Assembly (NCBI GenBank): GCA_963422595.1
Contig: OY730298.1
Location: forward strand, 90,512 to 154,511
DNA: 64,000 nt
Reading direction: 5' to 3'
From: Gammaproteobacteria bacterium
GTDB taxonomy: Bacteria; Pseudomonadota; Gammaproteobacteria; UBA4575
The notes under the pieces were generated by a model, which was not told the origin of the DNA, ran no database searches, and saw only the letters and a list, made by a program, of their open reading frames with translations. Made by a program: the position numbers and the translations under genes. Shown one piece after another: positions 10,247-27,930 of this stretch (position 1 is the stretch's first letter; each line of letters starts with the position of its first letter).

Positions 10247-10268
10247 CCCCCCCCCCCCCCCCCCCCCC
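10247..10268. repeat. Homopolymeric poly-C tract (about 22 nt) upstream of the first gene of the glycan island
   Basis: Read directly: 'tatactCCCCCCCCCCCCCCCCCCCCCCtcgaaaaagg'. It lies about 90-140 bp upstream of the candidate starts of the WecA-like gene. Confidence 0.9.
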
Positions 10269-10356
10269 TCGAAAAAGGTGTCCTTGAAGCAATTTTGCAG
10301 GGCATTAAATCAAACGTCAGTAAACGGATATTCATACTACTAATTTATAATTAGAG

Positions 10357-11532: not shown

Positions 11533-11619
11533 ATGAATGCCTTCAGTGGTAGCCCTGGTTGTGTTTTTGGCAACGCCGGCTGCCTGATTTGGTTAATCAC
11601 CAGTAAGTGAGTATTAACG

Positions 11620-12711
11620 TTGACCACGGAAGATAATAAAAAGCTGAAGATGCTGATGATCGGGCCGTTGCCTGCTGCCGAGCCGTCCACTACTAATGTG
11701 ATTGGGGGAAATAAGGTGTTGGCTGCGGAATCAATCCTGGAACTGGGTAAGCGGGGTTTTGAGATGAAGGTGGTCGACACTTCTGGGGACGTGACTAATC
11801 TGCCTGCCTGGAAAATTCACTGTTATCGCCTGGCCCGGTTGCTGCGAGTGCTCCGGAAAACCGCGAAAAGGCTGCGGTATTCCGACGTCGTGTTCCTGGT
11901 TATCGCACCCTATTCGGCATTGGTGCTGGGGACATTAATATGGATTATCTGCAAGATGGCGCGCCGCCCCCTGGTGCTACGGTTCTCCGGCTGCGGCTTT
12001 GTGGATACCTATGAAGGATACGGACCTTTGGCGCGCTGGGTGGCAAACCGTACCTATATGCGCTCCGCTCTGGTGTACGTGGAAACGCAGCAGACGCACC
12101 GCCGCTTCAAGGGGAGAGCCAATTTCCATTACTTCCCCAATACGAGAGACCTTGCAATGCCTGACCGGATCAGGCGCAATAAAGTCAACAGGCTCATCTT
12201 TTTCGCGCAACTGCATATGGACAAAGGGCTGGCAGAGGCACTGGAGGCGTGCCGGCATTTGCCCGATGACTGCCATCTTGAGGTGTTCGGTCCACGCATG
12301 TCCGACACAGATTTCTCCGGATTCGATGGCCATCCCCGAGCGAGCTATGGCGGCGTTTTGAAGCCGGCTGAGATCCCCCAGATTCTTAGTAAATATGACC
12401 TGCTGCTGTTCCCCAGCTATTGCAGAAGAGAGGGTTATCCCGGCTCTATTCTGGAAGCCTTCCAGTGCGGCCTGCCCGTGGTTGCTGCCAGATGGGGCGG
12501 CGTTCCCGAGCTGGTCGGGCATGAAGAAAGTGGGCTGCTGGTGGAACCCCGTTCCGCAGTGGCGATTCAGGCCGCAATTACGCGGCTACTGGAAGACCCA
12601 AAGTTGTACCAGCGTTTGTGCGAGGGGGCAAAACGACGGGGGGACTGCTTTCGTAACCCTGAGTGGTATGAACGCATGGCCGCTGATCTGAAGGGTTTAA
12701 GGGTGTTATGA
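11620..12711 (+). CDS. Glycosyltransferase, GT-B fold (GT4 family)
   Basis: C-terminal 'FPSYCRREGYPGSILEAFQCGLPVVAARWGGVPELV' is the retaining GT4 E-x7-E region. Confidence 0.75.
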   Translation: MTTEDNKKLKMLMIGPLPAAEPSTTNVIGGNKVLAAESILELGKRGFEMKVVDTSGDVTNLPAWKIHCYRLARLLRVLRKTAKRLRYSDVVFLVIAPYSALVLGTLIWIICKMARRPLVLRFSGCGFVDTYEGYGPLARWVANRTYMRSALVYVETQQTHRRFKGRANFHYFPNTRDLAMPDRIRRNKVNRLIFFAQLHMDKGLAEALEACRHLPDDCHLEVFGPRMSDTDFSGFDGHPRASYGGVLKPAEIPQILSKYDLLLFPSYCRREGYPGSILEAFQCGLPVVAARWGGVPELVGHEESGLLVEPRSAVAIQAAITRLLEDPKLYQRLCEGAKRRGDCFRNPEWYERMAADLKGLRVL

Positions 12712-12768
12712 AAACATGCGTATTGTCGAACCAGGTGCCCAACCCAAGGGACGGATATCCACCACAGT

Positions 12769-13755
12769 ATGACTGAAAACAGTGCCCAACGTATCCGGAA
12801 TTCCTGCCCTGGGGTTTCGGTTATTATCCCATCACGCAACGACGCGATGAACATTACAAACTCTCTCGATTCGATCTTTGCGCAGGATTATACGGGTTCG
12901 ATGGAGGTGATCGTTGCCGACGGTTCTGATACTTCGGCAACTGCTACTATGGTTCACCGACATTACCCGTCAGTGCGGGTGGTGCCAAACCCGGAGAAGT
13001 TGACCGGCTTCGGGGCGAACGCGGCGCTGCGAGCAGCCAGCGGGGAGGTCATCGTGCGATGCGACTCCCATACGAGGTTCCCGCCGGAATACGTGCGTCG
13101 TGCAGTGGCGACGCTGATGAGAACGGGAGCAGCCAACGTCGGCGGCCGACAACAGCCAGTGGGAACCACGTTTTTTGAGCGGGCAGTGGCACTGGCGATG
13201 ACCACTCCGCTGGGGGCCGGGAACGCCCGCTACCGTTTGGGAGGCACCGAGGGGGCCGTGGACACGGTCTTTCTCGGCACGTTCCAGCGCAAGGCACTGG
13301 AAGCAGTGGGGGGATACGATGGCGCCTTGGTCCGCAACCAGGACTACGAACTCAACTGGCGACTGCGACAGCATGGCGAGACGGTGTGGTTTGATCCTCA
13401 GCTCGTTGCCTATTACCGCCCACGCGGCACGTTGCGAAAGCTGGCCCGGCAGTATTTCGACTATGGCCGCTGGAAGCGGGTGGTGCTGCGGCAGCATCCG
13501 ACCTCAGTACGTGCGCGGCATTTGGCCGCGCCGCTGCTGGTATCTGGATTGGCTGCCGCGGGGCTGCTGGGGCTGGTCGGCGTTCCTTGGAAGGTCGTGG
13601 CGGCGACACCGCTGGCCTATCTGGTTGCCTTGGCGACCGGCGCCCTGGCAGTCGGCATCAGCCACCGCGAGAAGGCGGCCGTGCTGCTGCCGCTGGTGCT
13701 GGTCACCATGCACCTTTGCTGGGGTATCGGCTTTTTCCTGCCGCCTCGGAAATGA
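12769..13755 (+). CDS. Glycosyltransferase family 2 with C-terminal TM helices
   Basis: 'VSVIIPSRNDAMNITNSLDSIFAQDY...VIVADGSDTS' is a GT2 N-terminal DXD-type signature. Hydrophobic C-terminus. Confidence 0.75.
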   Translation: MTENSAQRIRNSCPGVSVIIPSRNDAMNITNSLDSIFAQDYTGSMEVIVADGSDTSATATMVHRHYPSVRVVPNPEKLTGFGANAALRAASGEVIVRCDSHTRFPPEYVRRAVATLMRTGAANVGGRQQPVGTTFFERAVALAMTTPLGAGNARYRLGGTEGAVDTVFLGTFQRKALEAVGGYDGALVRNQDYELNWRLRQHGETVWFDPQLVAYYRPRGTLRKLARQYFDYGRWKRVVLRQHPTSVRARHLAAPLLVSGLAAAGLLGLVGVPWKVVAATPLAYLVALATGALAVGISHREKAAVLLPLVLVTMHLCWGIGFFLPPRK

Positions 13756-13792
13756 TGCGTCTCCTTACAGTAGCGCATGGTGAAGTTCCTGA

Positions 13793-15568
13793 TTGTGCAT
13801 CCGAGAGCCGCCTGGCAGACGCCTGACTGTCGCGATCGTCGGTGTTCATGGTGGATGCGCTGTGATAGCGTCAACACGCCCTGAGTCAATGATGCAGATC
13901 GTGATTCCCATGTCCGGCTTCGGGGAGCGCTTCCGCATAGCGGGCTACAAGGTGCCCAAGCCGCTGATCAATATCGACGGCAAGCCCATCATCGCGCACG
14001 TGCTGAACCTGTTCCCCGGCGAAAGTAACTTCATCTTCGTATGCAACCAGGAGCATCTTGACGACCCCGAATACCGCATGGAGCAGATTCTGCGGTCTCT
14101 CTGTCCGACTGGACTGGTTCTCGGTATTCCACCGCATTCACTTGGCCCGGTGCATGCCGTGCGCCAGGTTGAGCATCAACTCGACCCCACCAGTCCAGTT
14201 GTAGTCAACTACTGCGACTTTTCCTGCTACTGGGACTGGAACCATTTCAGGCGATTTGTTGAGGAAGTGGCTTGCGTCGGAGCGATTCCAGCATACAGGG
14301 GATTTCATCCCCACTCGCTGGGAAGTACCAATTACGCCTATATGCGCGAAGCCAATGGTTGGGTTCAGGATATTCAGGAGAAAAAACCTTACACCAGTAA
14401 TCGCATGCAGGAGTTTGCATCGACTGGAACTTACTATTTTTCCTCAGCGCAAATCATGAGCCAGGCCTTCCGTGTGGCGATAGAGCAGAAACTGCATTTG
14501 GGCGGAGAATACTACGTTAGCCTGGCCTATAAGCCTTTGCTTGCCGAGGGCAAGCCTGTGGCCGTTTATCCACTGCAACATTTCATGCAATGGGGGACAC
14601 CCGAGGATGTCGCCGAATACAGGAGCTGGTGCAGGGCATTCCGAAGCCTGGTGGAGAAACCGGGCAGCGGCGCCAGCGTCAGACCTCAAGGCTCTGTCAT
14701 ACTGCCCATGGCTGGATTCGGCCGGCGCTTCGTCGAAGCAGACTACAGCGTGGCCAAACCGATGATCTCCGTATCCGGGAAGCCGATGGTGGTTCAGGCA
14801 ATACAGGCGCTGCCGCCCGCCGAGCATTATGTCTTCGTTCTAAGGAAGGATATGCCCGGGACCCGGGCGATCACCGATGAACTAAGACGCCTTTACCCGC
14901 AGGCGATTGTCGAGATACTCTCACAGGTCACCGAGGGGCAGGCCTGTACGGCCCTGCTCGGACTCGATGCGCTTGAACGAGCCGTTGGCAGGAGTGTGCC
15001 AGAGCCTGTGACTTTCGGTGCTTGCGATCATGGTGCCCTCTACGACGGCGTGGCGTTTCAGCAATTGGTCGACGACGACAACGTCGACGTCATTGTCTGG
15101 GGGGTGCGCGATCATGCCAATGCGCTTCGCCATCCGCAGATGTTCGGTTGGATCAAGGCTAATCACGGGTGGATAGAAAGAATTTCGGTCAAGACACCGC
15201 TCGATTCACCGGCTTCCGCCCCTATTGTATCTGGCACTTTTACATTTCGGCATGCAGATGACTTCCGACACTGTGTCGGACGACTGATCAAACGCAATGA
15301 CAGGATCAACGGCGAATTCTATCTCGACTCCTGCATCAACGACGCCGTGGAGTTGGGCCTGCGTTGTCGCCTGTTCGACCTTGACAGCTATTTGAGCTGG
15401 GGCACCCCGGATGATCTCCGGACCTTTGAGTATTGGCAGTCCTGCTTCCACAAATGGCCCGGGCATCCTTATCGGCTTGAGAATGACCAAAGGGTCGCCG
15501 TAGAGGCACTGGAGGATCTGGGCAAAACGTACTGCACCGTTGTGCCCAAGCCGGTAAAATTGACATGA
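13793..15568 (+). CDS. Tandem-duplicated sugar-phosphate nucleotidyltransferase (two LicC/GlmU-N-like NTP-transferase domains)
   Basis: Two homologous halves each begin with a nucleotidyltransferase glycine-rich loop: 'MMQIVIPMSGFGERFRIAGYKVPKPLINIDGKPII' and 'SVILPMAGFGRRFVEADYSVAKPMISVSGKPMV'. The likely true start is the ATG at 13889. Confidence 0.6.
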   Translation: MCIREPPGRRLTVAIVGVHGGCAVIASTRPESMMQIVIPMSGFGERFRIAGYKVPKPLINIDGKPIIAHVLNLFPGESNFIFVCNQEHLDDPEYRMEQILRSLCPTGLVLGIPPHSLGPVHAVRQVEHQLDPTSPVVVNYCDFSCYWDWNHFRRFVEEVACVGAIPAYRGFHPHSLGSTNYAYMREANGWVQDIQEKKPYTSNRMQEFASTGTYYFSSAQIMSQAFRVAIEQKLHLGGEYYVSLAYKPLLAEGKPVAVYPLQHFMQWGTPEDVAEYRSWCRAFRSLVEKPGSGASVRPQGSVILPMAGFGRRFVEADYSVAKPMISVSGKPMVVQAIQALPPAEHYVFVLRKDMPGTRAITDELRRLYPQAIVEILSQVTEGQACTALLGLDALERAVGRSVPEPVTFGACDHGALYDGVAFQQLVDDDNVDVIVWGVRDHANALRHPQMFGWIKANHGWIERISVKTPLDSPASAPIVSGTFTFRHADDFRHCVGRLIKRNDRINGEFYLDSCINDAVELGLRCRLFDLDSYLSWGTPDDLRTFEYWQSCFHKWPGHPYRLENDQRVAVEALEDLGKTYCTVVPKPVKLT

Positions 15569-15966
15569 AGGTCCGCTACGATTATTATATTCTGCGCTTC
15601 CTGCTAGTTGGCGTCGGATCGAATGTGGCCAATCTCCTGTGTTACCTGGCGATGCTGCACCTCCATACGCCAGTCTTTGTAGCCGCCGTTTCGGGATATT
15701 TGCTTGGGCTCACGTGCTCTTATCACTTCGGTAGAACCTGGGTCTTCCGCCGTAGATTCAATGCTAACTTGGGGAATATTACAAGATTTCTCATCGTGTA
15801 CATCGTCGGCGGAGTGGGTATGAGTGCAATCACCACCGTGTTGGTCAACGATTTGATGTTCAATTATGTGGCTGGCTGGCTGTTCGGGGCAGGATTTGCA
15901 GCTTGCAATAATTTTATCGGGCTGAAATTTATAGTCTTTAGATCGGAACAGCGCCTGGTAGATTGA
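15565..15966 (+). CDS. GtrA-family small membrane protein
   Basis: 133 aa with 4 predicted TM helices and 'YYILRFLLVGVGSNVANLLCYLAML', typical of GtrA. It is start/stop-coupled to its neighbours. Confidence 0.7.
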   Translation: MKVRYDYYILRFLLVGVGSNVANLLCYLAMLHLHTPVFVAAVSGYLLGLTCSYHFGRTWVFRRRFNANLGNITRFLIVYIVGGVGMSAITTVLVNDLMFNYVAGWLFGAGFAACNNFIGLKFIVFRSEQRLVD

Positions 15967-16691
15967 TGGCATCTAAATTTGGATTTTTCCTCCGGTTGGG
16001 GTTTTTGCAGGACTGGGCTTCCGCCTTTATTGCGAGCCTGAAGCCGGCCGTTCTGCACAATCTGGAAAAATACTATGCGCTCAAAAAGGTGTGCTACCTT
16101 TCCGCGATAGAAGACGTCGAGGGAGACTATCTTGAGTTCGGTGTTTTCACCGGCAGTTCGTTTTGCTACGCGCTCCGCTGCTGCAGGAAGCTCGCTCAAA
16201 TCAATCCGAATATTGTCGACACGAAGTTCTACGGCTTCGATTCGTTCGCCGGATTCGGCCCCCTTGAACAACAGGACATACATCCTTTCTATATTGACGA
16301 GAATTTTGCAGTCAGTTTGCCAAAGGTTGGGAACCGGGTTCGCAAGGCCGCCGGGGACATGGCGTTTCAATTGATTCCTGGCTTCTTCAGTGAATCGTTG
16401 CGGCATGGAGCACAACGGATGGGCATCAAAAAGGCTCGTATCATTTTTATCGACAGCGATACCTTCACCAGCGCAAGCCAGGCCCTGACCTTTTGCCGAC
16501 CGACGGTTCGACAAGGCACGTTTATCGTGTTGGACGACTATTTTTCCTATCGAGGCCGCGAAGACCGCGGCGTCCGGCGCGCTTTTTCCGAATTCACCAA
16601 CGCCAGCGGCATTGAGGCGCGGCACGTCTTCACCTATGGCATGGGCGGCAGCGTTTTTGTCGTATCAAAAGCGGTGCCAGATGCAGCCTGA
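15963..16691 (+). CDS. Class I SAM-dependent O-methyltransferase, TylF/MycF (macrocin-O-MTase)-like; likely sugar O-methylation
   Basis: 'EGDYLEFGVFTGSSF' and 'IIFIDSDTFTSASQALTF' resemble TylF-family motifs. Confidence 0.55.
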   Translation: MMASKFGFFLRLGFLQDWASAFIASLKPAVLHNLEKYYALKKVCYLSAIEDVEGDYLEFGVFTGSSFCYALRCCRKLAQINPNIVDTKFYGFDSFAGFGPLEQQDIHPFYIDENFAVSLPKVGNRVRKAAGDMAFQLIPGFFSESLRHGAQRMGIKKARIIFIDSDTFTSASQALTFCRPTVRQGTFIVLDDYFSYRGREDRGVRRAFSEFTNASGIEARHVFTYGMGGSVFVVSKAVPDAA

Positions 16692-17388
16692 ACTATCCAT
16701 CGTGATTCCCTGCTACAACGAGGCCGCTAACCTTCCCCTGTTGCTGGAGAGCTGTAATCATATTATCACGAGGCCGGGCACGGAGGTCATTCTGGTCAAT
16801 AACGGCTCGACGGACGATACACCTCGCATCCTGCGCGAGTTGCTGCCGAAGTATCCCGGTTGCCGAAGCGTGCGCGTGGCAATAAATCGGGGCTACGGCA
16901 ACGGCATTCTGGCCGGCCTGGCAGCGGCCGACGGAGATATTCTGGGCTGGACCCACGCCGACATGCAGACGGACCCCCAGGACGTCCTGCGCGGGCTTGA
17001 ACTGTTCCGAAACCATGGCCAAAATATCTTCGTCAAGGGCCACCGCCACGGCCGTCCGATGGCGGACGTTTTCTTCACGGCCGGCATGAGCGTGTTCGAG
17101 ACGGTTTTGCTCGCCAGGCCGATGCGGGATATCAATGCCCAGCCGACGATGTTTACCCGCGATTTTTATGAGACGTGGAAAGCGCCGCCCGACGATTTTT
17201 CGCTCGATTTGTACGCCTACTTTCAAGCCTGCGCCACCAACCTGCGCGTCTACCGCTTTCCGGTCAGGTTCGGTCGACGCGCTCACGGCCTCTCGCGCTG
17301 GAACGTTAACTGGTCGGCTAAGTGGAAATTCATCCGCAGGACTGCGGCCTTCAGTCTGCGCCTGAGAAAGTCCCTGAAATCATCATGA
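16681..17388 (+). CDS. GT2 polyprenyl-phosphate glycosyltransferase (GtrB/ArnC/DPM1-like)
   Basis: 'LSIVIPCYNEAANLPLLLESC...VILVNNGSTDDTPRI...DADMQTDP' fits the GtrB/DPM1-type GT2 pattern. It is paired with a GtrA-family gene. The ATG at 16681 was chosen over the longer track ORF. Confidence 0.7.
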   Translation: MQPELSIVIPCYNEAANLPLLLESCNHIITRPGTEVILVNNGSTDDTPRILRELLPKYPGCRSVRVAINRGYGNGILAGLAAADGDILGWTHADMQTDPQDVLRGLELFRNHGQNIFVKGHRHGRPMADVFFTAGMSVFETVLLARPMRDINAQPTMFTRDFYETWKAPPDDFSLDLYAYFQACATNLRVYRFPVRFGRRAHGLSRWNVNWSAKWKFIRRTAAFSLRLRKSLKSS

Positions 17389-17993
17389 AGTTGATCGTTC
17401 ATCGCCGCAACACGTTGCCGGAACTCAAAGCGACCCCAGAACAGTACGGCGTCGAGGTTGATATACGCAGTACCGGCAGGAAACTGATGATGCATCACGA
17501 TCCCTTCGTCACCGGCGAAGATTTCAGAGAATGGCTGGATGCCTATCGACACGCGACGTTGATCCTCAACGTCAAGGAAGACGGTCTGGAAAAACGTTTA
17601 ACCGCTCTGATGCAGACACAGGGCATCGAAGATTATTTTTTCCTGGATCAGTCTTTCCCTTCACTGGTGCAATGCGCCCGGGCGGGGCAACACCGCTGCG
17701 CGGTTCGCGTTTCCGAATTCGAATCGGTTGAGACGGCCCTGACCCTGGCCGGACGGATCGACTGGGTCTGGGTGGATTGCTTTACTCGTTTCCCGCTGAC
17801 GCCTGAAGACGTCCGCCGACTCCATGAAGCCGGTTTCAAGCTCTGCCTGGTGTCGCCGGAATTGCAGGGACGCACTGCCGCAACCAGTATCGCCGCTCTG
17901 GCCACGCAGCTCGGCAAGTGCCGCATTCGGCCCGATGCCGTTTGCACCAAGCACCCCGAGCTGTGGAAACAAGCTGGAAGCGGGGGAGGGTAG
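17385..17993 (+). CDS. Glycerophosphodiester-phosphodiesterase-like (GDPD/UgpQ-like) small protein
   Basis: 'IVHRRNTLPELKATPEQYGVEVDIRST' resembles the GDPD 'HRG..PENT...E.D' N-terminal motif. Its ATG overlaps the previous stop (ATGA). Confidence 0.45.
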   Translation: MKLIVHRRNTLPELKATPEQYGVEVDIRSTGRKLMMHHDPFVTGEDFREWLDAYRHATLILNVKEDGLEKRLTALMQTQGIEDYFFLDQSFPSLVQCARAGQHRCAVRVSEFESVETALTLAGRIDWVWVDCFTRFPLTPEDVRRLHEAGFKLCLVSPELQGRTAATSIAALATQLGKCRIRPDAVCTKHPELWKQAGSGGG

Positions 17994-17996
17994 AGC

Positions 17997-20058
17997 TATG
18001 AAAACGCTCTGCCTGCACCCAACGTTCTGGTTCGGACTGGCGATTCGCCTGACGTTGATGCTGGTCATGATGCCCGATCCGGTAAGTGATTGGTACGCGC
18101 CGTTCATGGATGTCAGCACGAACCGCTTCACGCTCGATCCCTGGGGTCTCTGGCTGGCCAGCGGAGGCGATTACGCCGCCTTTCCCTATGGTTATACGAT
18201 GTGGTTGGCTTTACTACCCCTGACCTTGCTCGCCAAGCTTTTTACGCTGCCGTTGCATCTTGGCTATTTGCTGACGCTGCTGGCCGCAGACATTACTCTG
18301 CTGTTCGTTTTGCGCCGGCTGTTTTCGGAGCTACAAACACACCTTCTGCTGTTTGTGTACTGGCTGTCGCCTATCGTCATTCTCACCAGCTATGCACTGG
18401 GACACAATGACCTGATCCCCGTTCTGTTTCTGGTTCTGTCGCTAGATCTCGTCCGCCGGGGCAAAAATCTCTACAGCGTCGCGGGGGTGGCGGCCATGGT
18501 GGCTATTTCGGCCAAGTTCAGCATGGTCATCGCCTTACCATTCCTGATCATCTATTTATACAACAACAAACCGCTGAGAAAACATCTACTGGCGTTTCTG
18601 AAAGGCTTGTTCCTGTCCGCCCTCATTCTGTTCGTTCCCTTCCTGTTGTCGCGGGGCGGTACACACATGCTGTTTGGAAACCCGGAGATGGAGAAAATCT
18701 ATTCTCTGATGTTTCACGTAAGCGATAATATGCAGGTCTATATCGTCCCGGCGGTTTATCTGATCATGCTGTACATGGTATGGCGGACCAGGCGTATGAG
18801 CTTCGATCTTTTTCTGGCCACTACAGGGCTAGCTTTCCTGGTGGTGGTCCTGCTGACACCGGCTTCTCCTGGCTGGTTTGTCTGGTTGTTGCCGTTCCTC
18901 GTCTTCTACCAGGCAATGGGCGTTCGCGCCATCGTATTGGTAACAACCTTTGCGTGGGCCTATACGCTGGGCACGCTGCTGGCTACGCCTCTCCAACTAT
19001 TCAATGGATACGTGTTTGACATTGGTGATGCCGCACGAGCGACCATGCCAGCCGGTGGTCAGATGGTCTTTTCTCTGTTCCATACCGGCATGACCGCGCT
19101 TGGCGTGGTTCTGGCCATTTACATGTGGTATGCCGCTGTCAGTCGAAATGATTTTTTCCGGTTTAGCCGCAAGCCTTTCACGATTGGAGTGGCGGGCGAT
19201 TCCGGGGCGGGTAAGGATCACTTCACAAACGCCCTCACGGGACTTTTTGGGGGAAATTCCGTAGCCAAGCTTCACGGCGACGACTATCACCTTTGGGACC
19301 GACACTTACCGATGTGGAAGGTGGTCTCCCACCTGAACCCGATGGCCAATGATCTGGAGCGCTTCGGCCATGACCTGGTTGCCATGATTAACAGGAGAGA
19401 TATCTGGTCCCGGCGCTACGATCATCAAACAGGAAAGATAACCGGGCCGTTTAAAACCAAGAGTAATGACTTCATTATCGCTAACGGCCTGCACTCGCTT
19501 TATCTGTCGATTTTCAGAGAGTGCTACGACCTCAAAATCTATCTCGACATGGATGAAGGATTGCGCCGCTACTTCAAACTGAAGCGTGATGTTCATCACC
19601 GCGGGCATGCGGCCAGTCAGTCAGCACAAGACATGGCAAAGCGCGAACCCGATTCCCATCGCTTCATTCGGCCACAAAAAACGCATGCAGACCTGGTTTT
19701 CTCCGTGCAGCCCGTCTGTCCCAACATGCTGCATGGGCTGGATGAGCAACGTACTGCCCGACTGAAGCTGGCAGTCCGCATCCGACATAGCTTCAATGAA
19801 GCGTCGCTGGCCCGCGCACTAATCGGAATCTGCGGTCTGCACGTCGACGTGTCGATTGGCAGCGACAGCGAGGAAATATTGATGACGATTGATGGGGAAA
19901 TATCGGCCCAGGATATGATCCTGATCGCCGAGCGGCTCTGTCCCTGTGCCCTGGACTTGCTCGACACTCAGGCGCAGTGGCAAAATGGCGTCACTGGCCT
20001 GATGCAACTGATCACCCTGTGCCATATTAATAGAACTCTGGCGAAACGCCTGATATGA
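17997..20058 (+). CDS. Fusion protein: N-terminal polytopic membrane domain (about 420 aa) plus C-terminal uridine-kinase/phosphoribulokinase-family P-loop kinase domain
   Basis: The C-terminal domain has 'TIGVAGDSGAGKDHFTNAL' (PRK/Udk P-loop), 'KLHGDDYHLWDRH' and 'YFKLKRDVHHRGH' (the Udk RD..ERG-like region). Before it are about 10 predicted TM helices. The ATG at 17997 was chosen, since the upstream part of the track ORF overlaps the GDPD-like gene. Confidence 0.6.
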
Positions 20059-20822
20059 AGATTCACAATTCGGAGAAGTTTGAACACCGACCGCACGCCG
20101 TCTTGTTTGATATGGATAATACGCTATATCCCTATGACCTGGCGCATACCGCCGGTTGGCAGGCAGTGCAGGACAAAATGTGCGGTATGTTTTCCATCAC
20201 CGCGAAAGATTTCGACAAGATGTCGCAGGCAGCCAGAACTGAAGTAAAAAGTCGACTCGATGGCACGGCCTCGTCTCATAGCCGCCTGCTCTATTTTCAT
20301 CTCATGTTGGAAGTCATGGGATTGGGTTCCCGGGTGCTGCTGGCACTGGATTTAGAGCAGACGTACTGGCGTACCTTTTTGAGGAAGGCCGTGCTGTTCG
20401 ACGGCGTTAAGGAGTTGATCAATATTATCCGTTTTTTCGATATCCCGGCGGCAGTTGTGACCAATCTGGCGGCACACACTCAATTCAAAAAACTGGTGTA
20501 TTGGGAGCTTGACAGTTGTTTCGATTACGTTGTCACCAGTGAGGAAGCCGGCTTCGACAAACCACATCAAGCTATTTTCACGCTGGCTTTGGATAAAATT
20601 CAACCGGCCGGCGATATCGTCTGGATGATCGGCGACGATCTTGAAAAGGACATCAGGGGGGCAAGAGAGGGCATCGGCGCCGTGACACTTCAAAAAACGC
20701 ATCAGGGCGTGTCCACTGGACGTGGCCACATGACTCCAGATGCAACGTTTTCAAGTTTCCATGAGGTGCATAAGTTCATCAGGCAGCTGGCATCCACTGG
20801 CATGGAGGACATTGCACAATGA
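20055..20822 (+). CDS. HAD-superfamily hydrolase (phosphatase)
   Basis: 'AVLFDMDNTLY' is HAD motif I (DxDxT). C-terminal 'MIGDDLEKDIRGAREGIG' fits motif IV. Confidence 0.75.
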   Translation: MKIHNSEKFEHRPHAVLFDMDNTLYPYDLAHTAGWQAVQDKMCGMFSITAKDFDKMSQAARTEVKSRLDGTASSHSRLLYFHLMLEVMGLGSRVLLALDLEQTYWRTFLRKAVLFDGVKELINIIRFFDIPAAVVTNLAAHTQFKKLVYWELDSCFDYVVTSEEAGFDKPHQAIFTLALDKIQPAGDIVWMIGDDLEKDIRGAREGIGAVTLQKTHQGVSTGRGHMTPDATFSSFHEVHKFIRQLASTGMEDIAQ

Positions 20823-21886
20823 GGGACGCCATTCAGGAATTCTGCGCTCGTATCGGCAAAGACCCCTTGCTGGTTCAAGGTGCTGGCGGCAATGTGTCAT
20901 GGAAGGACAGTGACGTACTGTGGGTCAAGGCATCGGGAACATGGCTGGCGGACGCTGAGAACAGCAATATTTTCGTGCCGGTGGATCTGCAGGAAATCCG
21001 GGCCGCGCTCCAGGGAAGCGCATCGGACGAGGGTATCCACCACCCGTCGGGGGCGGCTGGCAAACCCCCGCTGCGCCCCTCAATCGAGACCTCTTTGCAC
21101 GGTATCCTGCCGCACAAGGTGGTCGTTCATCTGCATGCGGTCGAGGCACTTGCCGTCCTGGTTCGGGCCGGAGCATATGGTGAGTTGAGGGATCGTCTGG
21201 GCCGTTCTGTTCGCTGGGAATTCGTCGAATACCACCAACCCGGCGGCGCACTTGCGCAAGCGGTGTTGGCCACCTTGCGCCAGATGCCGGATGCCGACGT
21301 CATTTTTTTGCAAAACCACGGGGTCATCGTTGCCGGCGATACGGTGGACGCCGTGGAACAGCGCGTCGCGGACGTCGTCTCGGCCCTAAAGAAAGATGTT
21401 CCCGTTGCAACAACGGAGGCGGAACGAAGCATCCGAAAGCGATTGCCGCACACTCTGGAGCATACCGCTATGGAGTGCTATGCCGCAGTCGAAGATATGC
21501 GGATTCAAAGCATGGTTCACCGAGAGGATCTCTATCGCAGACTGTCGACGGCGTGGGCACTCTACCCGGATCATGTCGTCTTTCTGGGCGCGCAGGCGCA
21601 GGTGTTTGATTCGCGGGATCATGCCGCGGCGTTTTGCAGAACGCGCCAGCCGCCCGTGGTCTTCATCCGTTCCGACGGCGTTTTCGCGAGACCGGAATTC
21701 GGCGACGCCGGACGAGCGCAGCTCAGATGTTATTACGAAGTGCTGGTCAGACAGAAATCCTGGGACACTTTGGTTGAATTGACCCAAAGTGACATAGACG
21801 CCCTTACCAACTGGGAAGCCGAACGATATCGGGTAAATCAAGCCCCGTCGAACGGTTTTCGATATACTGAGACAACGCCGCAATGA
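20819..21886 (+). CDS. Class II aldolase/adducin-family protein (extended)
   Basis: 'LLVQGAGGNVSWKDSDVLWVKASG' and 'HKVVVHLHAVEALAV' are typical of the class II aldolase/epimerase fold (AraD/FucA/MtnB family). An extra C-terminal domain of about 130 aa follows. Confidence 0.6.
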   Translation: MRDAIQEFCARIGKDPLLVQGAGGNVSWKDSDVLWVKASGTWLADAENSNIFVPVDLQEIRAALQGSASDEGIHHPSGAAGKPPLRPSIETSLHGILPHKVVVHLHAVEALAVLVRAGAYGELRDRLGRSVRWEFVEYHQPGGALAQAVLATLRQMPDADVIFLQNHGVIVAGDTVDAVEQRVADVVSALKKDVPVATTEAERSIRKRLPHTLEHTAMECYAAVEDMRIQSMVHREDLYRRLSTAWALYPDHVVFLGAQAQVFDSRDHAAAFCRTRQPPVVFIRSDGVFARPEFGDAGRAQLRCYYEVLVRQKSWDTLVELTQSDIDALTNWEAERYRVNQAPSNGFRYTETTPQ

Positions 21887-23853
21887 AAAAGCTGAATTTT
21901 CAAGCCTTGTTCACAATATTAAACAGCGTGGCGGACGTGTGCGTGCGTTCACGCTACGCCATCTTCGCCTTGCTGCTGGTGTTTTTTCTCACTGCGTCGG
22001 CATGGATTTTCAATATGAACAGCCACGACATGACTCGTGCACACGCTGACGAGAATCACACGCTGTTAAAAGTGCGCAACTTACAATCCACATTTAGTCA
22101 GGTCGGCGAAATGAACAGGTGGTTCGTACGTTTGCTTTACCCCGCAGGTATTTATTACATGAACAACCATATGGGAGGAGCTATCCTTTCGCAGGGCTGG
22201 AGATATCCTGGCGGTTATTATCTTCAAAAGGAATTTAAAAAACCAGATGCCGTTCAGCACGACCCGAATATTCAAGATTTTGTTTTCTTTATGAGGCTGG
22301 CATTCGGCGTATTAGCCGTTTGTTCTTTCTGCCTGGTGATATGGGTGTTGTTCAGTCGGTTCAGCTGGGTGGCTGCAACAATTTATGGGACCCTGATACT
22401 GAGCTCTCCGCTGGTCTTTAAACAATTTCGCTTTTTCTATTCCGAGACCACGATGTTTATCATTTTCAACATCGTGGCGTTTCTTTGTCTTTTTTCCCGA
22501 ACGCCGACCCATCGCACCGCCGCCTATCTGGGCATACTGTCTGCCGCTGCATTATCCACCAAGCTGACCGGCACCGTGCTGGTCGTCGCGCCGGTGCTTG
22601 CTTATATGTTCGTCAATATCGGGCGCGCGCAGGGGCACAAGGTGGATTTTCGCATCGAACTCCATCTTTTGTTCGCCCTGGCGTTCCTGATATTGATTAA
22701 TCTGCCCTATGGTTCCTATTTTGAATTTGTCAATACGACTCTTAGTAACGTCTATCATCTGAAAGCCGGAAACTCCGTCGTTTCCGGGGAGAGCGCGGTT
22801 GATTTCCTCTTCAGATTCCTCGCCGCTTTGAAATACCCGGTGGTTTTATTGTTTGTAGCCAGCCTGTTATGGTTGGCGCATGCTCCGAAACGACAGCTTG
22901 TACCTGTCTATGTATTAGGTCTGGGCATCGCGTTTTTTATCTGGTCTTTGTCAAATACGCCGTATTATTATAGTCGCAATATGGCCTCTGTCTACGTTGC
23001 AATGAGTTTGGTCGTTGCCCTGGGTATCGGAGATTTCCTGAAATCAGGAATATCCGTGCATAAAAACGTGTCTGGGGTATTTTCTTTGGGTTTAATGTTG
23101 ATATTCGCCTGGGGCGTCGGCAATGTTTTTCTGAACCGGATCTCGCCCCTGAGCGAGACGTTTTTCGAGAGAAACGCTGAAAGAATTGAAACATGCAGCA
23201 GCATCGGCAGCATTGGACTGTCGAATGACGATCTTCAGGCTCTTGGCAAGGACGAAACGATTACTTCTTATGACCAAATCCGGGGGCCTTTCATTTTTCA
23301 TGAGGATCGTGAAGAAATCTTTGGTAAATACCTTCAGTTCGATTGCCTTGTCGTGCGCCGGCAAGGGCAGACCAAAAAGGTATCGAACTCGTTTGCCCCG
23401 CAACCCTACAATTTAGTGGATCGCATCGGCAATTTGTTTTTTTTCGTCGAAAACCCTGAGTCCCTTGTAGGACTCTATTGGAGACTGAGTAAGGAATCCG
23501 AACCGGTTATCCGCTCCCATTATAGCGTGTATCTGGATCGCAACACTCTGGTGTACGTCAAGAACGACTGTCGCTTTAAGCGAGACACCGCAGCCCGCTT
23601 CTTTCTGCATGTCATACCGGTTGATGAAAGCAATCTTTCGGAAGATCAGAGGAAGCACGGTGCGGCCGGCCTCGATTTTAATTTCAGTGACGCTGGTGGC
23701 TTCCTGTGGAATGACCAATGCTTTGTGGTTCGCGAGCTGCCCGACTATGCCATCAAGTACATTCGCACCGGCCAATTTCGACATGTGGCAGGTGGCTATG
23801 ATAACCTCTGGGATGCCAGTTTTGATTTCACCGAACGTGAGGACGACCGCTAG
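21883..23853 (+). CDS. Large polytopic membrane protein, putative GT-C-fold glycosyltransferase (ArnT/PMT-like)
   Basis: 656 aa with about 11 predicted TM helices in the first 420 aa. There is an acidic 'HADENH' in the first extracytoplasmic loop, and a soluble domain of about 230 aa follows. It co-occurs with GtrA and GtrB-like genes. Confidence 0.4.
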   Translation: MKKLNFQALFTILNSVADVCVRSRYAIFALLLVFFLTASAWIFNMNSHDMTRAHADENHTLLKVRNLQSTFSQVGEMNRWFVRLLYPAGIYYMNNHMGGAILSQGWRYPGGYYLQKEFKKPDAVQHDPNIQDFVFFMRLAFGVLAVCSFCLVIWVLFSRFSWVAATIYGTLILSSPLVFKQFRFFYSETTMFIIFNIVAFLCLFSRTPTHRTAAYLGILSAAALSTKLTGTVLVVAPVLAYMFVNIGRAQGHKVDFRIELHLLFALAFLILINLPYGSYFEFVNTTLSNVYHLKAGNSVVSGESAVDFLFRFLAALKYPVVLLFVASLLWLAHAPKRQLVPVYVLGLGIAFFIWSLSNTPYYYSRNMASVYVAMSLVVALGIGDFLKSGISVHKNVSGVFSLGLMLIFAWGVGNVFLNRISPLSETFFERNAERIETCSSIGSIGLSNDDLQALGKDETITSYDQIRGPFIFHEDREEIFGKYLQFDCLVVRRQGQTKKVSNSFAPQPYNLVDRIGNLFFFVENPESLVGLYWRLSKESEPVIRSHYSVYLDRNTLVYVKNDCRFKRDTAARFFLHVIPVDESNLSEDQRKHGAAGLDFNFSDAGGFLWNDQCFVVRELPDYAIKYIRTGQFRHVAGGYDNLWDASFDFTEREDDR

Positions 23854-24006: not shown

Positions 24007-25155
24007 TTGCCAGGTAGATTGCCGACCATGACAATTCGAATGCTTTGCATCCTTCCAATCAGCACGGATGCCAGGATTGCCAAGCGTATTGATATGCTGC
24101 GGCGGGTGGGCTTGCAGGTTGAGGCACTAGGCTTCGAACGCAAACACTATCTGGGCAGCCGGCCAAACTGCCCATTCGCTAAACTAGGGAATATTTCGAA
24201 TGGGCGTTACGCTGCCCGAATCGGGAAATTAATGTCGGCCATACCAAAGACACGAGGTGCAATGCAACGCAATGACGTCATTTATGCGTTCAGCGCCGAT
24301 ATGGCCCTCCTGTCTCTGATCTCCGGAGCAGGATTGAGGATGCCAGTTATTGTCGAGATGGCTGACATCAGAGAGATTCAGGTCGCGGGCGGTCTGATCG
24401 GCTGCGTGGTTCGCGGCATTGATAAGCTGACGACTCGCGCCTGTCGACTGCTGGTGCTGACGACCGATAGCTACCTGAGCTACTACCGCAACTGGCTGGA
24501 GATAGAAACGCCGAGTGTGATCATCGAAAATAAGGTTGATGGATGGTTTTCGGCGGCCGTTCGCGCCAAGCGTGCGTATCCCTTGAGCGGCCGACCGCTG
24601 GTGGACCGACCACTGCGTATTGGCTGGTTCGGCTACTTGAGAGATGAATGGTCGCTGCGAGTTCTGCACTTGTTGACGCGATCAACTGACCAGTTCTCCG
24701 CAATTCTCGCCGGGTCGCAATCGGAGCCCTGCCGGAGACTCATTGACGAATTGGGGGAAATGCCCAACAGTGAGATTCTCGGACCCTACGACCATCCGGC
24801 AGATCTGTCGGCTCTCTACGGCCGCGTTGACATGGCCATGGCCTGTTATCCGCCAGAGGCACCGCACGGCTGGTCCCGGTCGAACAGGTACTACGACGCC
24901 TGCCTGTTCCAGAGGCCGATCATCGTTCGTGGCGGTTGCGGGGATGCCGATCGGGTGCGGCAGCTCGATATCGGACTAACTATCGTCTCGTCCGAAATTG
25001 AGGGAGCAGCGGCGGAGATATGCGACATCGAGGCCGCAACATGGGATCGCTGGCGTGCTAGTATGGTGGCTTTGCCACCCGAGGAATACACTATGGGGAA
25101 TGAGGATATTGTACTGCGGGATACAATCAAAGACATCGTGAGGGGATTGGCATGA
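24007..25155 (+). CDS. Hypothetical protein, possibly a GT-B-like glycosyltransferase
   Basis: 382 aa soluble protein inside the glycan island with no strong motif I could identify. Confidence 0.3.
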   Translation: MPGRLPTMTIRMLCILPISTDARIAKRIDMLRRVGLQVEALGFERKHYLGSRPNCPFAKLGNISNGRYAARIGKLMSAIPKTRGAMQRNDVIYAFSADMALLSLISGAGLRMPVIVEMADIREIQVAGGLIGCVVRGIDKLTTRACRLLVLTTDSYLSYYRNWLEIETPSVIIENKVDGWFSAAVRAKRAYPLSGRPLVDRPLRIGWFGYLRDEWSLRVLHLLTRSTDQFSAILAGSQSEPCRRLIDELGEMPNSEILGPYDHPADLSALYGRVDMAMACYPPEAPHGWSRSNRYYDACLFQRPIIVRGGCGDADRVRQLDIGLTIVSSEIEGAAAEICDIEAATWDRWRASMVALPPEEYTMGNEDIVLRDTIKDIVRGLA

Positions 25156-26498
25156 ATTGGACTGGTGTTGCGAACATCGTCCACCGGCTTGCCGGGCATG
25201 GTTACGCCAACCGGGTTCGAGATGCGCTGGTTGGCGGTACTTCCGTACTCGGCGTGATCGCCCGGCGCCTGTCGTTTCCCGGCGACAGCCTTGCTCTGCT
25301 GGCTTTGCTGCTGGCGGCGAACTTGCTGCGCATCTACCTTCCCGGCCTGGTCACCGATGGCGTCTTCGGGATGACGGTCCTACTCCTCGCGCTGTCGCTG
25401 TTCCGGGAGCCATTTCCAGCCTCCGCGCGGACGACCGCCCTCTGCTTCGCGGTGCTGCTGACGGTCTACGTGGTCGGCCTGCTGGTGGAGTTCAGCATCC
25501 AGGGCGCCAGCAATCTTGCCGGGATTCTGTTCGCCGGCGTCATCTTTCTGTTCTGCTGGCGCAATGCTCCGACATTGATTCGGGCCAAGTACGTTATCCC
25601 CCTCTTGCTGACAGCAGCCTCGGCACTATTTCCGCTGTACCTGCTGCCGGCCGGACTCAACGCAAATAGCTTTAGCAGCATCTTCGGATACTTGCTGCTG
25701 ACCGTCGGGCTTATCCTGATAGCCCGCTCTGAGTGCCGAAGAAAACGGCATTTATGGGTACACGTCTTGTTCTTGCTGGTTATGGCGATTGGCGTCATTT
25801 TCGGAACCCGGATACTTGTACTTATCGCGCTATTGGCTTACCCGCTGTACTGGAGCGGGTACTTTTTCCTGCGAAACCGATTGGGTGCCGGACTGGGGGC
25901 AGCAACCGCGGGGTTGCTGATCTGCTTTCCTATCGTGTTTTTGGGCACGCCTTACTTCAGTGAAGTCATGGCGACACTCGAGAGCTTCAGTCGAAAGTAT
26001 ACAGGGAGCGGCATACAAACTGGACGTGAGACATTTTGGCGGCACTCGCTGGCCGCTATCTCTGAGTCCCCTTGGCTTGGCAGAGGTCCCGGCGCAGGTG
26101 TTTCAGGTCTGACGAACGGTGACTCGTCCCTTTCCGAACGACAGTTGGAGCTTCCTCTTTCCTGTCTGAATGCAACAAACCCGGGCTTGAGGGCCGACTG
26201 CGAGATTCTACTGGGGGCGCGCAACAGCTTGACCACTGATCCTGAACTTCTCTGGACCTGGGTGCCATTCCGCCCTCTGGATTCCTGGCGGGGTATGAAG
26301 GTAGGCGGTGCGCCGCCGCGGGTGGTGGCAATAAACATTCATGAGCGGGGATTGCGCGGCGTTATTCCGCCGGCACTGGGGCGACTGGACAAGTTGGAGT
26401 CGCTGAGGCTAAGCAACAATGCCCTGACTGGCCCGATTCCGCCCGAGCTGGGCGGCTGCGCAACCTGCGGGTGCTGGCGCTCAACGACAATGCGTTGA
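25152..26498 (+). CDS. N-terminal part of Wzy_C (O-antigen-ligase/PglL-type) membrane protein, running into the first LRR module and truncated by a frameshift
   Basis: Nine predicted TM helices, then 'FSRKYTGSGIQTGRETFWRHSLAAISESPWLGRGPGAG', the Wzy_C periplasmic-loop motif. Next come an LRRNT-like cap ('DCEILLGARNSLTTDPELLWTWVPFRPLDSWRGMKVGG') and LRRs. The frame ends at 26498 shortly after a GGG run that is GGGG in the duplicated copy downstream. Confidence 0.7.
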   Translation: MNWTGVANIVHRLAGHGYANRVRDALVGGTSVLGVIARRLSFPGDSLALLALLLAANLLRIYLPGLVTDGVFGMTVLLLALSLFREPFPASARTTALCFAVLLTVYVVGLLVEFSIQGASNLAGILFAGVIFLFCWRNAPTLIRAKYVIPLLLTAASALFPLYLLPAGLNANSFSSIFGYLLLTVGLILIARSECRRKRHLWVHVLFLLVMAIGVIFGTRILVLIALLAYPLYWSGYFFLRNRLGAGLGAATAGLLICFPIVFLGTPYFSEVMATLESFSRKYTGSGIQTGRETFWRHSLAAISESPWLGRGPGAGVSGLTNGDSSLSERQLELPLSCLNATNPGLRADCEILLGARNSLTTDPELLWTWVPFRPLDSWRGMKVGGAPPRVVAINIHERGLRGVIPPALGRLDKLESLRLSNNALTGPIPPELGGCATCGCWRSTTMR

Positions 26499-27930
26499 GC
26501 GGCCCCGTCCCGCCGCAACTCGGAGCGCTCGAAAACCTTGAGGAGCTGCGGTTACGCGGCAACCGGCTGAGCGGCGAAGTGCCGTTAGAACTGGCGAATC
26601 TAACTAACCTGTCGCTGTTACGTCTTGCCGGCAACGATTTCACCGGCACACCGCCGCCGACGCTGCACGATACGGCGGACCATGACCTCGACCAAGACTC
26701 GCTCTGCCTACCCTTATTGCACGTCGGCGAGGGGCTGCTCAGCGACTGCGAGACTCTGCTGGCCGCGCGGGACGTTCTGGCCGGTAACGCCACGCTCGAC
26801 TGGAAACGATCCAGGCCTATCGCGGCATGGCAGGGCGTGGCAATTGGCAAGACTTCAGGGGGCATACGAGTAGTCAGGCTGGACTTGACGGATCTCGGGC
26901 TGAGCGGCTCAATTCCGCCGGAACTCGGCGGGCTGGATCAACTTATGTCGTTGCGCCTCGCCGGCAACTGGCTCACCGGTTCCATTCCGCCGGAACTGGG
27001 GGAACTCATGCGCCTGAGGGAGTTACGGCTCGCAAACAACCGGCTGAGCGGCGACATCCCGCCGGAACTCGGTTGGCCGTTCGGTCTGTCGATTCTGCGT
27101 CTTGCCGGGAATGATTTCACGAGCGACTTGCCAGCAACGCTTGACCATGTCGGCGAGCACGATTGGGGTCTTGAGCTGTTCTGCCTGCCCGCCGGCAAAG
27201 CAGGCATCCCATCGCCGGGTATCAGCACTGCCATGCTCGAAGATTGCACCGTGCTGCTGGAAGTGCAGGACGTTCTGGCCGGGGAAGCGATGCTCAACTG
27301 GAAACAGTCCCGGCCCATCGGGACGTGGCAGGGTGTGAAGGTAGGCGGCGCGCCGCCGCGGGTGGTGGCAATAAACATTCATGAGCGGGGATTGCGCGGC
27401 GTTATTCCGCCGGCACTGGGGCAACTGGACAAGTTGGAGTCGCTGAGGCTGAGCAACAATGCCCTGACTGGCCTGATTCCGCCCGAGCTGGGGCGGCTGC
27501 GCAACCTGCGGGTGCTGGCGCTCAACGACAATGCGTTGAGCGGCCCCGTCCCGCCGCAACTCGGAGCGCTCGAAAACCTTGAGGAGCTGTGGTTACGCAG
27601 CAACCGGCTGAGTGGCGAAGTGCCGTTAGAACTGGCGAATCTAACTAACCTGTCGCTGTTACGTCTTGCCGGCAACGACTTCACCGGCACACCGCCGCCG
27701 GCGCTGCACGATACGGCGGACCATGACCTCGACCAGGACTCGCTCTGCCTACCCTTATCGCACGTCGGCGAGGGGCTGCTCAGCGACTGCGAGACTCTGC
27801 TGGCCGCGCGGGACGTTCTGGCCGGTAACGCCACGCTCGACTGGAAACGATCCAGGCCTATCGCGGCATGGCAGGGCGTGGCAATTGGCAAGACTCCAGG
27901 GGGTATACGAGTAGTCGGGCTGGACTTGAC
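26281..27930 (+). repeat. Intragenic tandem duplication: about 620-bp segments at 26281-26900 and 27311-27930 are about 97-98% identical (period about 1,030 bp)
   Basis: Direct base-by-base comparison of the two stretches ('...ggtgtgaaggtaggcgg.gcgccgccgcgggtggtggcaataaacattcatgagcggggattgcgcggcg...ctgacggatctc') shows only scattered substitutions. One difference is a 1-nt indel in a G-run. Confidence 0.85.

Follow-up and report, generated by a model that had tools for sequence, protein, structure and literature searches.

In Gtr-type glycosylation, as outlined in the accessible part of PMC11127046, a lipid-linked sugar is made in the cytoplasm, flipped across the membrane and then used on the outside by a GT-C glycosyltransferase, the parts being GtrA, GtrB and a serotype-specific GT-C. 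Here we analyze a gammaproteobacterial locus that joins parts of this kind to phosphoribulokinase (PRK), in a single gene encoding a membrane domain of predicted GT-C fold followed by a PRK domain. The gene lies in the window, by which we mean the whole stretch of 64,000 nucleotides that was analyzed (positions 90,512 to 154,511 of contig OY730298.1, assembly GCA_963422595.1). PRK is classically tied to CO2 fixation, and the GT-C enzymes PimE, ALG6, ALG3 and PIG-M use polyprenyl-phosphate monosaccharide donors.

A phosphatase acting on ribulose 1,5-bisphosphate (RuBP) is also relevant to the locus. According to the accessible text of PMC9700705, the haloarchaeal RuBP 5-phosphatase accepts RuBP as the sole substrate among 12 tested and releases ribulose 1-phosphate (Ru1P), and its gene adjoins that of a class II Ru1P aldolase in one operon. 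In a literature search that left most subscription journals outside, we found no paper linking phosphoribulokinase to O antigen, GtrA, ribulose 1-phosphate, undecaprenyl, GT-C or polyprenyl, and none on the fusion, on the cassette of genes around it, or on the 'cyanobacteria-specific PRK' entries 9qkn-9qkp.

The fusion gene and its two domains

The fusion gene is an uninterrupted open reading frame (ORF) of 686 codons at 17998-20058 on the + strand, with its stop codon at 20056-20058. Its ATG at 17998 is preceded by the ribosome-binding site GGGGGAGG, and a gap of 4 nt separates it from the stop of the upstream gene, which ends at 17993. The initial annotation of this stretch had described a single gene with its stop at 20058, which is correct, and had placed the start at 17997, one base too early. 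The gene encodes two domains.

17998-19152, + strand: N-terminal domain of GT-C glycosyltransferase fold (residues 1-385, 12 helices), assigned by VIA-align fold matches
19168-20058, + strand: C-terminal phosphoribulokinase domain (residues 391-686), assigned by Pfam, NCBIfam and PDB sequence matches and by fold matches

The C-terminal domain matches PF00485 (PRK/uridine kinase) over residues 396-572 with 98.5 bits against a gathering cut-off of 22 (E = 5.7e-28). The top NCBIfam model is phosphoribulokinase NF005655 (180.5 bits, residues 391-640), and the uridine kinase model reaches 71.4 bits. The closest solved relatives by sequence are the cyanobacterial PRKs 6hzk and 6kev (E = 1.1e-33), and the match to archaeal PRK 5b3f spans residues 385-671, covering the PRK-specific C-terminal extension. 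In the AlphaFold model of the fusion, made with a 41-sequence alignment (predicted local distance difference test, pLDDT, 87.8; predicted TM-score, pTM, 0.84), the top Foldseek ranks for the kinase domain are exclusively PRKs. VIA-align superimposes the domain on 9qko with Z 28.5 (280 residues aligned across residues 391-680, root-mean-square deviation 2.6) and on 5b3f with Z 26.9. Since the sequence and fold matches include the PRK-specific C-terminal part, the domain is, as modelled, a complete class II PRK fold, more than a uridine-kinase core. The earlier assignment to the PRK/Udk family therefore stands, as does the C-terminal position of the kinase, and the full PRK fold takes up ~300 residues. 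A homodimer prediction with two copies of kinase residues 385-686 scored 0.00 and returned no verdict either way.

The motifs quoted in the initial annotation are all present in the translation: GVAGDSGAGKDHF at residues 397-409, GDDYH at 427-431 and RDVHHRGH at 530-537. The P-loop, G400-D-S-G-A-G-K406-D407, is encoded at 19195-19221. Residues D428, D429, Y430, H431, R435, Y474, H476, H499, D531, G536, R549 and Q560 are invariant in 41 family sequences from several phyla, and so is K406. In the HMMER alignment to 6hzk, residues D428, D429, Y430, H431, R435, Y474, H476, H499, K527, R530, D531, R535 and R549 match their PRK equivalents and are invariant or nearly so in the same family members, and every PRK residue that can be mapped onto the ribulose 5-phosphate (Ru5P) site is kept. 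The roles of the Asp and the His of DDYH reportedly come from mutagenesis of Rhodobacter PRK. The active-site residues of Thermosynechococcus PRK that are named in the accessible part of PMC6800369, namely the P-loop, Arg50, Lys142, Asp146 and Arg164, map onto the conserved set of the fusion. The active site thus appears complete, with two family-wide changes at the Mg-ATP site.

The membrane domain had been taken for a tether of ~420 residues with ~10 transmembrane helices. In the AlphaFold model it has ~385 residues and 12 helices, and it adopts a GT-C glycosyltransferase fold, which the initial annotation missed. VIA-align matches it to ALG6 (6sni, Z 26.1, 353 residues aligned), PIG-M (9wno, Z 26.0), ALG3 (9s6r, Z 25.5), the non-catalytic PIG-U (7w72, Z 22.5), PimE (9dm5, Z 18.6) and ArnT (5f15, Z 18.5), all well above the Z of ~13-14 obtained for unrelated helical bundles. 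These matches place it in the GT-C fold, which is marked by a conserved N-terminal helix module and juxtamembrane helices. At the level of sequence, residues 1-391 match no Pfam family at E up to 10, curated GT-C families included, and a precomputed match to PF05208 (ALG3) is present in 2 of the 120 homologues listed. All 41 sequences share D98, N137, D138, K173, N228 and E230, of which K173 may be the counterpart of the Lys that binds phosphate in PimE.

PimE has 12 helices and both termini in the cytoplasm, according to the accessible part of bioRxiv 10.1101/2024.09.17.613550, and it aligns end to end with the N-terminal domain of the fusion. Given this alignment, the 12 helices of the model and the ATP requirement of the kinase, the kinase domain is predicted to be cytoplasmic and the GT-C active site periplasmic. 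The positive-inside rule alone is ambiguous for two loops of the fusion.

The fusion is widespread in this form. For the 120 homologues listed, identity to the query is 56-61% over 98-100% of its length. A scan of species genomes confirmed 131 stretches encoding a relative, and 80 loci were kept for comparison, from Pseudomonadota, Acidobacteriota, Planctomycetia, Nitrospira and Geobacter. All 80 encode the fused form, 3 of them being cut by contig ends. A search with the kinase domain only, against 1.84 billion cluster representatives, gives 2,802 matches at E <= 0.001 and 545 cluster representatives at E <= 1e-30. Among the best 150 representatives, 109 have at least 600 residues with the kinase at the C-terminus, and 41 are shorter (169-538 residues). 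Most of these 41 look like truncated gene calls, and about 5 of the 10 short ones inspected may, judging by sequence, be true stand-alone kinases of ~300 residues with short N-termini of their own. The fusion of a polytopic half to a kinase half, noted in the initial annotation, is therefore the rule among homologues.

The cassette and its distribution

The fusion is the sixth gene in a nine-gene operon at 13793-23853 on the + strand. The other eight genes are as follows.

13793-15568, + strand: tandem sugar-phosphate nucleotidyltransferase, 591 residues, with nucleotidyltransferase domains at residues ~33-280 and ~294-590
15565-15966, + strand: GtrA-family small membrane protein (PF04138, E = 2.2e-15), candidate flippase for a lipid-linked donor
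15966-16691, + strand: TylF-like O-methyltransferase (PF05711, E = 1.5e-14), an optional insert in the cassette
16681-17388, + strand: GT2 of the polyprenyl-phosphate type (DPMS/ArnC/GtrB-like), ~235 residues (PF00535, E = 6.2e-27)
17385-17993, + strand: GDPD/PI-PLC-like protein, ~200 residues, assigned by conserved motifs and by the PGAP names of orthologues
20055-20822, + strand: HAD phosphatase, nearest to the haloarchaeal ribulose-1,5-bisphosphate 5-phosphatase (NF053830, E = 2.7e-49)
20819-21886, + strand: class II aldolase/epimerase-fold enzyme (PF00596, E = 1.3e-18) with an extra conserved C-terminal part of ~165 residues
21883-23853, + strand: second GT-C glycosyltransferase by fold, variable between loci, 656 residues, with C-terminal alpha/beta and beta-sandwich domains

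Stop and start codons overlap at six of the eight operon junctions, as ATGA at 15565, 17385, 20055, 20819 and 21883 and as TGATG at 15966. The ATG of the GT2 gene (16681) lies 11 nt inside the methyltransferase gene, and the fusion starts after its 4-nt gap. The setting in a glycan locus agrees with the initial annotation, and so do the neighbours named there: the polyprenyl-phosphate-type GT2, the GDPD/PI-PLC-like protein, the HAD protein and the class II aldolase fold.

The HAD protein matches NF053830 (RuBP 5-phosphatase) over its full length with 167.9 bits, the next family reaching 90 bits. NF053830 is also the top family for all 24 HAD orthologues tested (138-188 bits, runner-up 78-121), which with the window protein makes 25 of 25 cassette HADs and a lead of 50-100 bits, and the HAD motifs are conserved in the cassette HAD family. 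In the aldolase-fold protein, E90, H104, H106 and H167 are conserved in 70 sequences. The N-terminal half of the nucleotidyltransferase matches Pfam NTP_transf_3 and NTP_transferase; the C-terminal half gives a second, weak match to NTP_transf_3 and aligns with PDB 4evw over residues 302-394 (E = 1.9e-6). The nearest solved relatives of the GT2 are DPMS 5mlz (E = 1.5e-10, residues 4-206), ArnC and GtrB 5ekp. The GDPD-like protein has no Pfam or NCBIfam match. Its family keeps H27-R28, E45-x-D47 and H59-D60, which we take to resemble GDPD motifs, and PGAP calls the E. coli, Azospirillum and Hirschia orthologues 'PI-PLC/GDPD family'.

The second GT-C is assigned by its fold match, not by sequence. 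In its AlphaFold model (pLDDT 81.7), VIA-align matches residues 19-420 to Pmt1-Pmt2 (6p2r, Z 23.8), ALG12 (22.4), AglB (20.3), AftB (19.1) and ArnT (18.5). PF02366 or PF03901 is carried by 2 of 50 homologue clusters of this protein. A profile-profile comparison of its family with the fusion family and two other variable families gives only a weak local match, at an S-x-K-L motif (11.5% probability).

Downstream of the cassette, a 382-residue ORF at 24007-25155, for which neither Pfam nor NCBIfam gives a match at the thresholds applied, precedes a gene for a Wzy_C-type membrane protein at 25152-30976. The latter bears a very long leucine-rich repeat insert and is split across two ORFs.

To measure conservation of the cassette, the window genes were searched by tblastn against the 80 loci, and counts were restricted to loci with enough flanking DNA. 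The HAD gene is found in 75 of 75 loci, the aldolase-fold gene in 74 of 74, the GDPD-like gene in 73 of 75, the GT2 gene in 66 of 71 and the nucleotidyltransferase gene in 63 of 67, and the gene order is nearly always the same among related loci. The window GtrA query finds a counterpart in 22 of the 80 loci, at 25-50% identity. The TylF-like methyltransferase occurs in 7 of the 80, mainly those of Vicinamibacterales (L016-L018, L072), which suggests an optional O-methylation of the transferred sugar. The remaining glycosyltransferase, Wzy and flippase genes of the window are found in 0-2 of the 80 loci.

The slot directly after the aldolase gene is variable. By a manual row count, ~43 of 62 loci encode a large polytopic protein there (536-745 residues), and ~19 of 62 have no large polytopic gene in that place. 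The proteins form at least 13 clusters whose mutual sequence similarity is undetectable. Of 37 tested, 2 match GT-C-related Pfam families, one PMT_2 weakly and the other DUF2298 (E = 1e-35), a family presumably related to GT-C. In varying from locus to locus, this slot resembles the acceptor-specific or serotype-specific GtrC of gtr clusters.

Two further arrangements were seen. Pseudomonas piscis MC042 carries two cassette copies on two scaffolds (L005 and L035), with equal coordinates and identities; in both, ~1.6 kb separates the HAD gene from the aldolase-fold gene, presumably because of a relocated variable membrane gene, and similar gaps occur in L027, L059, L068 and L076. On the Hirschia baltica plasmid NC_012983.1 (L090, 57630-77660), genes for UDP-glucuronate decarboxylase, a further glycosyltransferase and a GtrA lie upstream, the aldolase-fold gene is on the opposite strand ~6 kb off, and there are a second GtrA gene and an S-adenosylmethionine-dependent methyltransferase gene.

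The host genome, 99.87% complete, consists of one contig of 1.78 Mb. It contains no match to the RuBisCO large subunit (PF00016) and no further strong PF00485 gene. A search of 40 relatives (24 of the same family, 16 of the same class) did not find the fusion and gave only weak matches to other PRK-family kinases. GC content is 0.54-0.63 over window positions 12-34 kb, apart from 22-24 kb, where it falls to 0.48; on either side of the region it is 0.45-0.53. This rise fits a horizontally acquired island, the glycan locus at 12001-34000, in a small genome.

With a Yersinia cassette as query, blastn in 'distant' mode finds the cassette in 2 of 5,426 complete E. coli genomes, both times on a ~33-kb plasmid; the presence of O95 or O97 strains in the collection is not established, and more divergent copies would escape blastn. 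One of the plasmids, NZ_CP145712.1 (L081, 33 kb), carries an eight-gene cassette at 4986-17325 between a frameshifted and an intact copy of IS26. Its host is E. coli from human stool, with a chromosomal O35-type wzx/wzy O-antigen cluster that is interrupted by IS903B copies. Full-length fusions are also found on plasmids of Azospirillum brasilense and Hirschia baltica, the Azospirillum copy adjoining an ABC-transporter O-antigen-type cluster. In 50,697 phage records, tblastn gives no match to the fusion. Because the fusion was not found in the relatives searched and copies lie on plasmids, one of them IS26-flanked, the widespread cassette is probably a self-contained and horizontally mobile unit of the glycan-decoration type, with mobile forms that reach human-derived E. 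coli.

Proposed function and its alternatives

We interpret the observed domain identities, fusion, operon coupling and co-linear conservation of the cassette as follows. The fusion would be a bifunctional protein central to a Gtr-type periplasmic glycosylation cassette, with a donor route that starts from Ru5P and proceeds through RuBP to Ru1P; we lean slightly towards this reading. The cytoplasmic PRK domain would convert Ru5P to RuBP, and the translationally coupled HAD phosphatase would remove the 5-phosphate to give Ru1P. Taken together, the two steps would spend one ATP to shift the phosphate from C5 to C1, leaving a free O5 that permits furanose ring closure. The class II aldolase-fold enzyme would then edit the ketose 1-phosphate, the likeliest chemistry being epimerization via retro-aldol and aldol reactions, and the tandem nucleotidyltransferase would activate the product. 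The DPMS-like GT2 would load the sugar onto undecaprenyl phosphate, GtrA would flip the lipid-linked sugar, and the GT-C enzymes would carry out the transfer at the periplasmic face. The variable second GT-C would be the acceptor-specific transferase. The fused GT-C would perform a step in which donor and acceptor are both conserved, such as addition of a further residue of the same sugar, or would at least bind the lipid-linked donor. Being fused, the two domains would couple the first step to the last at a fixed 1:1 ratio, and RuBP would be made where the membrane machinery is.

A bolder extension, which we put forward tentatively and consider less likely than the reading above, is that hundreds of non-autotrophic bacteria make RuBP expressly as an intermediate of biosynthesis. 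The shift of phosphate from C5 to C1 would open a new route to an activated pentofuranose, which the GT2-GtrA-GT-C relay would add to O antigens and to further surface glycans. The sugar of that route could be xylulofuranose (Xulf) or ribulofuranose or, after isomerization of the ketose 1-phosphate to an aldose 1-phosphate, D-arabino- or ribofuranose. If true, the route would supply the missing genes for xylulofuranose side chains. The Xulf precursor genes of E. coli O95 and O97 lie outside the O-antigen clusters according to the accessible part of a 2019 review (PMC7685785), and Yersinia enterocolitica O:10 has an L-Xulf side chain whose genetics is described as unassigned in the accessible part of PMC11380512. 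The 2 matches among 5,426 E. coli genomes neither support nor refute a link to xylulofuranose O antigens, the one host examined being O35-type, not O95 or O97.

Several observations weigh against the proposed route. The first is a gap in the chemistry. A ketose 1-phosphate carries its phosphate on a carbon other than the anomeric one, and the customary sequence of sugar 1-phosphate, nucleoside diphosphate (NDP)-sugar, GT2 and polyprenyl-phosphate sugar therefore does not apply directly. The GDPD-like enzyme, moreover, has no step in the route. One speculation is that the GDPD-like protein bridges the gap, for example via a cyclic phosphate; another is that the ketose 1-phosphate is isomerized to an aldose 1-phosphate, in reverse of the MtnA-type enzymes. 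The score of 180.5 bits against NF005655 is under the curated cut-off of 236, and that of 167.9 bits against NF053830 is under the curated cut-off of 330, so neither protein is an equivalog by that test. Similarity of the aldolase-fold protein to the haloarchaeal Ru1P aldolase is slight (20 bits against that model). The variant on the Hirschia plasmid encodes a UDP-glucuronate decarboxylase, and within 9 kb it shows no tandem nucleotidyltransferase. In the kinase, the GK[ST] of Walker A is replaced by GKD (D407) throughout the family, and the Glu of EGLH is Asn here (NGLH) and Ser in most relatives (SGLH); with these replacements, kinase catalysis is a prediction. In the membrane domain, the first outer loop, where GT-C enzymes have the catalytic Asp, contains no invariant acid (D47 is kept in 35 of 41 sequences and replaced by Asn in the other 6; at D38, 31 of the 41 have Asp or Glu), and the presence of a second GT-C in the operon makes catalysis by the fused one less obvious.

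The points on the membrane domain would be explained if the fused GT-C were a scaffold or lipid-donor-binding module, like PIG-U in the GPI transamidase, and the variable second GT-C alone performed the transfer. PIG-U ranks high in the fold comparison (7w72, Z 22.5), the first outer loop has no invariant acid, and the operon contains a separate, acceptor-variable GT-C with a beta-sandwich, in line with the large polytopic protein of ~43 of 62 loci. However, the membrane domain is highly conserved across phyla, its six invariant polar residues exceed the needs of an anchor, and ~19 of 62 loci have no large polytopic gene directly after the aldolase gene. We consider a non-catalytic fused GT-C unlikely, yet it is the alternative that survives best.

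The replacements in the kinase raise the question of whether the PRK domain is a pseudo-kinase or sensor, one that makes no RuBP but controls the GT-C by binding ATP or a pentose phosphate. The change of the Walker A Ser/Thr to Asp and of the EGLH acid to Ser or Asn holds throughout the family, and the NCBIfam PRK score is below its cut-off, both as expected of a pseudo-kinase. The two changes are nevertheless complementary and fixed rather than drifting: next to the Mg-ATP site a carboxylate disappears at one position and appears at another, which we read as a relocated metal ligand, not decay. In addition, K406, D428, H431, R435, D531 and R549 are invariant in the 41 sequences, and a pseudo-kinase would leave the HAD and aldolase-fold partners without a source of substrate. 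We therefore give a catalytically inactive PRK domain little credence and prefer an active kinase.

Slightly less probable still is the proposal of the initial annotation that the kinase is held at the membrane to act on a lipid-linked or membrane-proximal substrate, for example a polyprenol-linked sugar or polyprenol. The covalent tie to a fold that binds polyprenyl-phosphate sugars speaks for it, and the non-canonical Mg-ATP site (GKD, S/NGLH) leaves room for altered chemistry. On the other side, the residues aligned with the sugar-phosphate site of soluble PRKs are all invariant, ~5 of the best 150 representatives seem to be soluble kinases that stand alone, the product of the coupled gene that follows is similar to a phosphatase specific for RuBP, and the GT-C site and the kinase are predicted by homology to lie on opposite faces of the membrane. 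The conserved Ru5P site, the possible soluble homologues and the RuBP-5-phosphatase-like coupled gene together make soluble Ru5P the likeliest substrate, and we regard a lipid substrate as improbable.

Least probable of all is that Ru1P is cleaved to dihydroxyacetone phosphate and glycolaldehyde and that the cassette uses the C2 or C3 fragment rather than a pentose: the haloarchaeal RuBP phosphatase and class II Ru1P aldolase do share an operon (PMC9700705, accessible part) and the aldolase-fold protein keeps the Zn and Glu residues, but it has the 20-bit score against the haloarchaeal model and the extra conserved C-terminal part, and the kinase, HAD and aldolase-fold trio is almost always co-linear with the nucleotidyltransferase, GT2 and GtrA, which need a sugar phosphate.

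On the preferred reading, in which RuBP feeds a glycosylation cassette, RuBP would have a second role, in biosynthesis, as suggested by the union of a complete PRK with a glycosyltransferase in heterotrophs that lack RuBisCO. The cassette very probably alters surface antigens, and hence serotype, recognition by the immune system and the receptors of phages. Were the sugar a pentulofuranose or D-arabinofuranose, the cassette would close a gap of long standing in the genetics of O antigens and would offer a portable module for glycoengineering.

Comparison with known systems

The kinase domain shares with the class II PRKs of cyanobacteria, plants and archaea (such as 6hzk, 6kev, 9qko and 5b3f) the whole fold, including the C-terminal part, as well as DDYH and, in the sugar-phosphate cleft, the residues Arg, His, Tyr and Lys. 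It differs in sitting behind a 12-helix membrane domain, in a glycan operon rather than a Calvin-cycle operon, and in a host without a RuBisCO match. Its P-loop reads GKD instead of GKS/T, S/NGLH takes the place of EGLH, and the Cys of the PRK P-loop (GDSGCGK) is Ala.

The membrane domain resembles PimE, ALG6, ALG3 and PIG-M in fold and size (~385-480 residues, 12-14 helices, no large soluble domain). Unlike these enzymes, to which it is 11-14% identical, it has no Pfam GT-C score, and its outer-loop Asp is not strictly conserved.

With the haloarchaeal non-carboxylating pentose bisphosphate pathway (PMC9700705, accessible part), the cassette shares a RuBP-phosphatase-like HAD gene beside a class II aldolase-fold gene. 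In that pathway ribose-1,5-bisphosphate isomerase is the source of RuBP, whereas in the cassette it would be PRK. The aldolase-fold protein is also of a different branch, and the context, with nucleotidyltransferase, GT2 and GT-C, is biosynthetic rather than that of nucleoside catabolism.

The polyprenyl-phosphoribose routes, as far as the accessible part of PMC11127046 describes them (mycobacterial decaprenylphosphoryl arabinose, DPA; Citrobacter youngae PPPRS, MATE flippase and GT136), likewise lead from a pentose phosphate to a lipid-linked GT-C donor, and they also have a phosphatase step and auxiliary epimerases that diversify the sugar. They begin with phosphoribosyl pyrophosphate and a phosphoribosyltransferase (PMC11127046), whereas the cassette has no phosphoribosyltransferase; its entry would be a kinase acting on a ketopentose phosphate, and it adds a nucleotidyltransferase and a GT2.

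The closest overall likeness is to the Gtr systems. The cassette has the three components, a GtrA-family protein, a DPMS/GtrB-like GT2 and GT-Cs, in one overlapping operon; it is mobile, and one of its GT-Cs varies between loci as GtrC does. Gtr systems draw on a housekeeping NDP-sugar as donor, and their GtrB-type GT2 carries membrane helices at its C-terminus. The cassette GT2, by contrast, has just ~235 residues, with DPMS aligned to residues 4-206, and in place of a housekeeping donor the cassette carries its own precursor branch of four enzymes (kinase, phosphatase, aldolase-fold enzyme and tandem nucleotidyltransferase) together with the GDPD-like protein. It also differs in having two GT-Cs, one of them conserved and fused to the kinase, and in its absence from the 50,697 phage records searched. 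Relative to a Gtr-type module, the new elements are the RuBP-based precursor branch and the fusion of kinase and GT-C.

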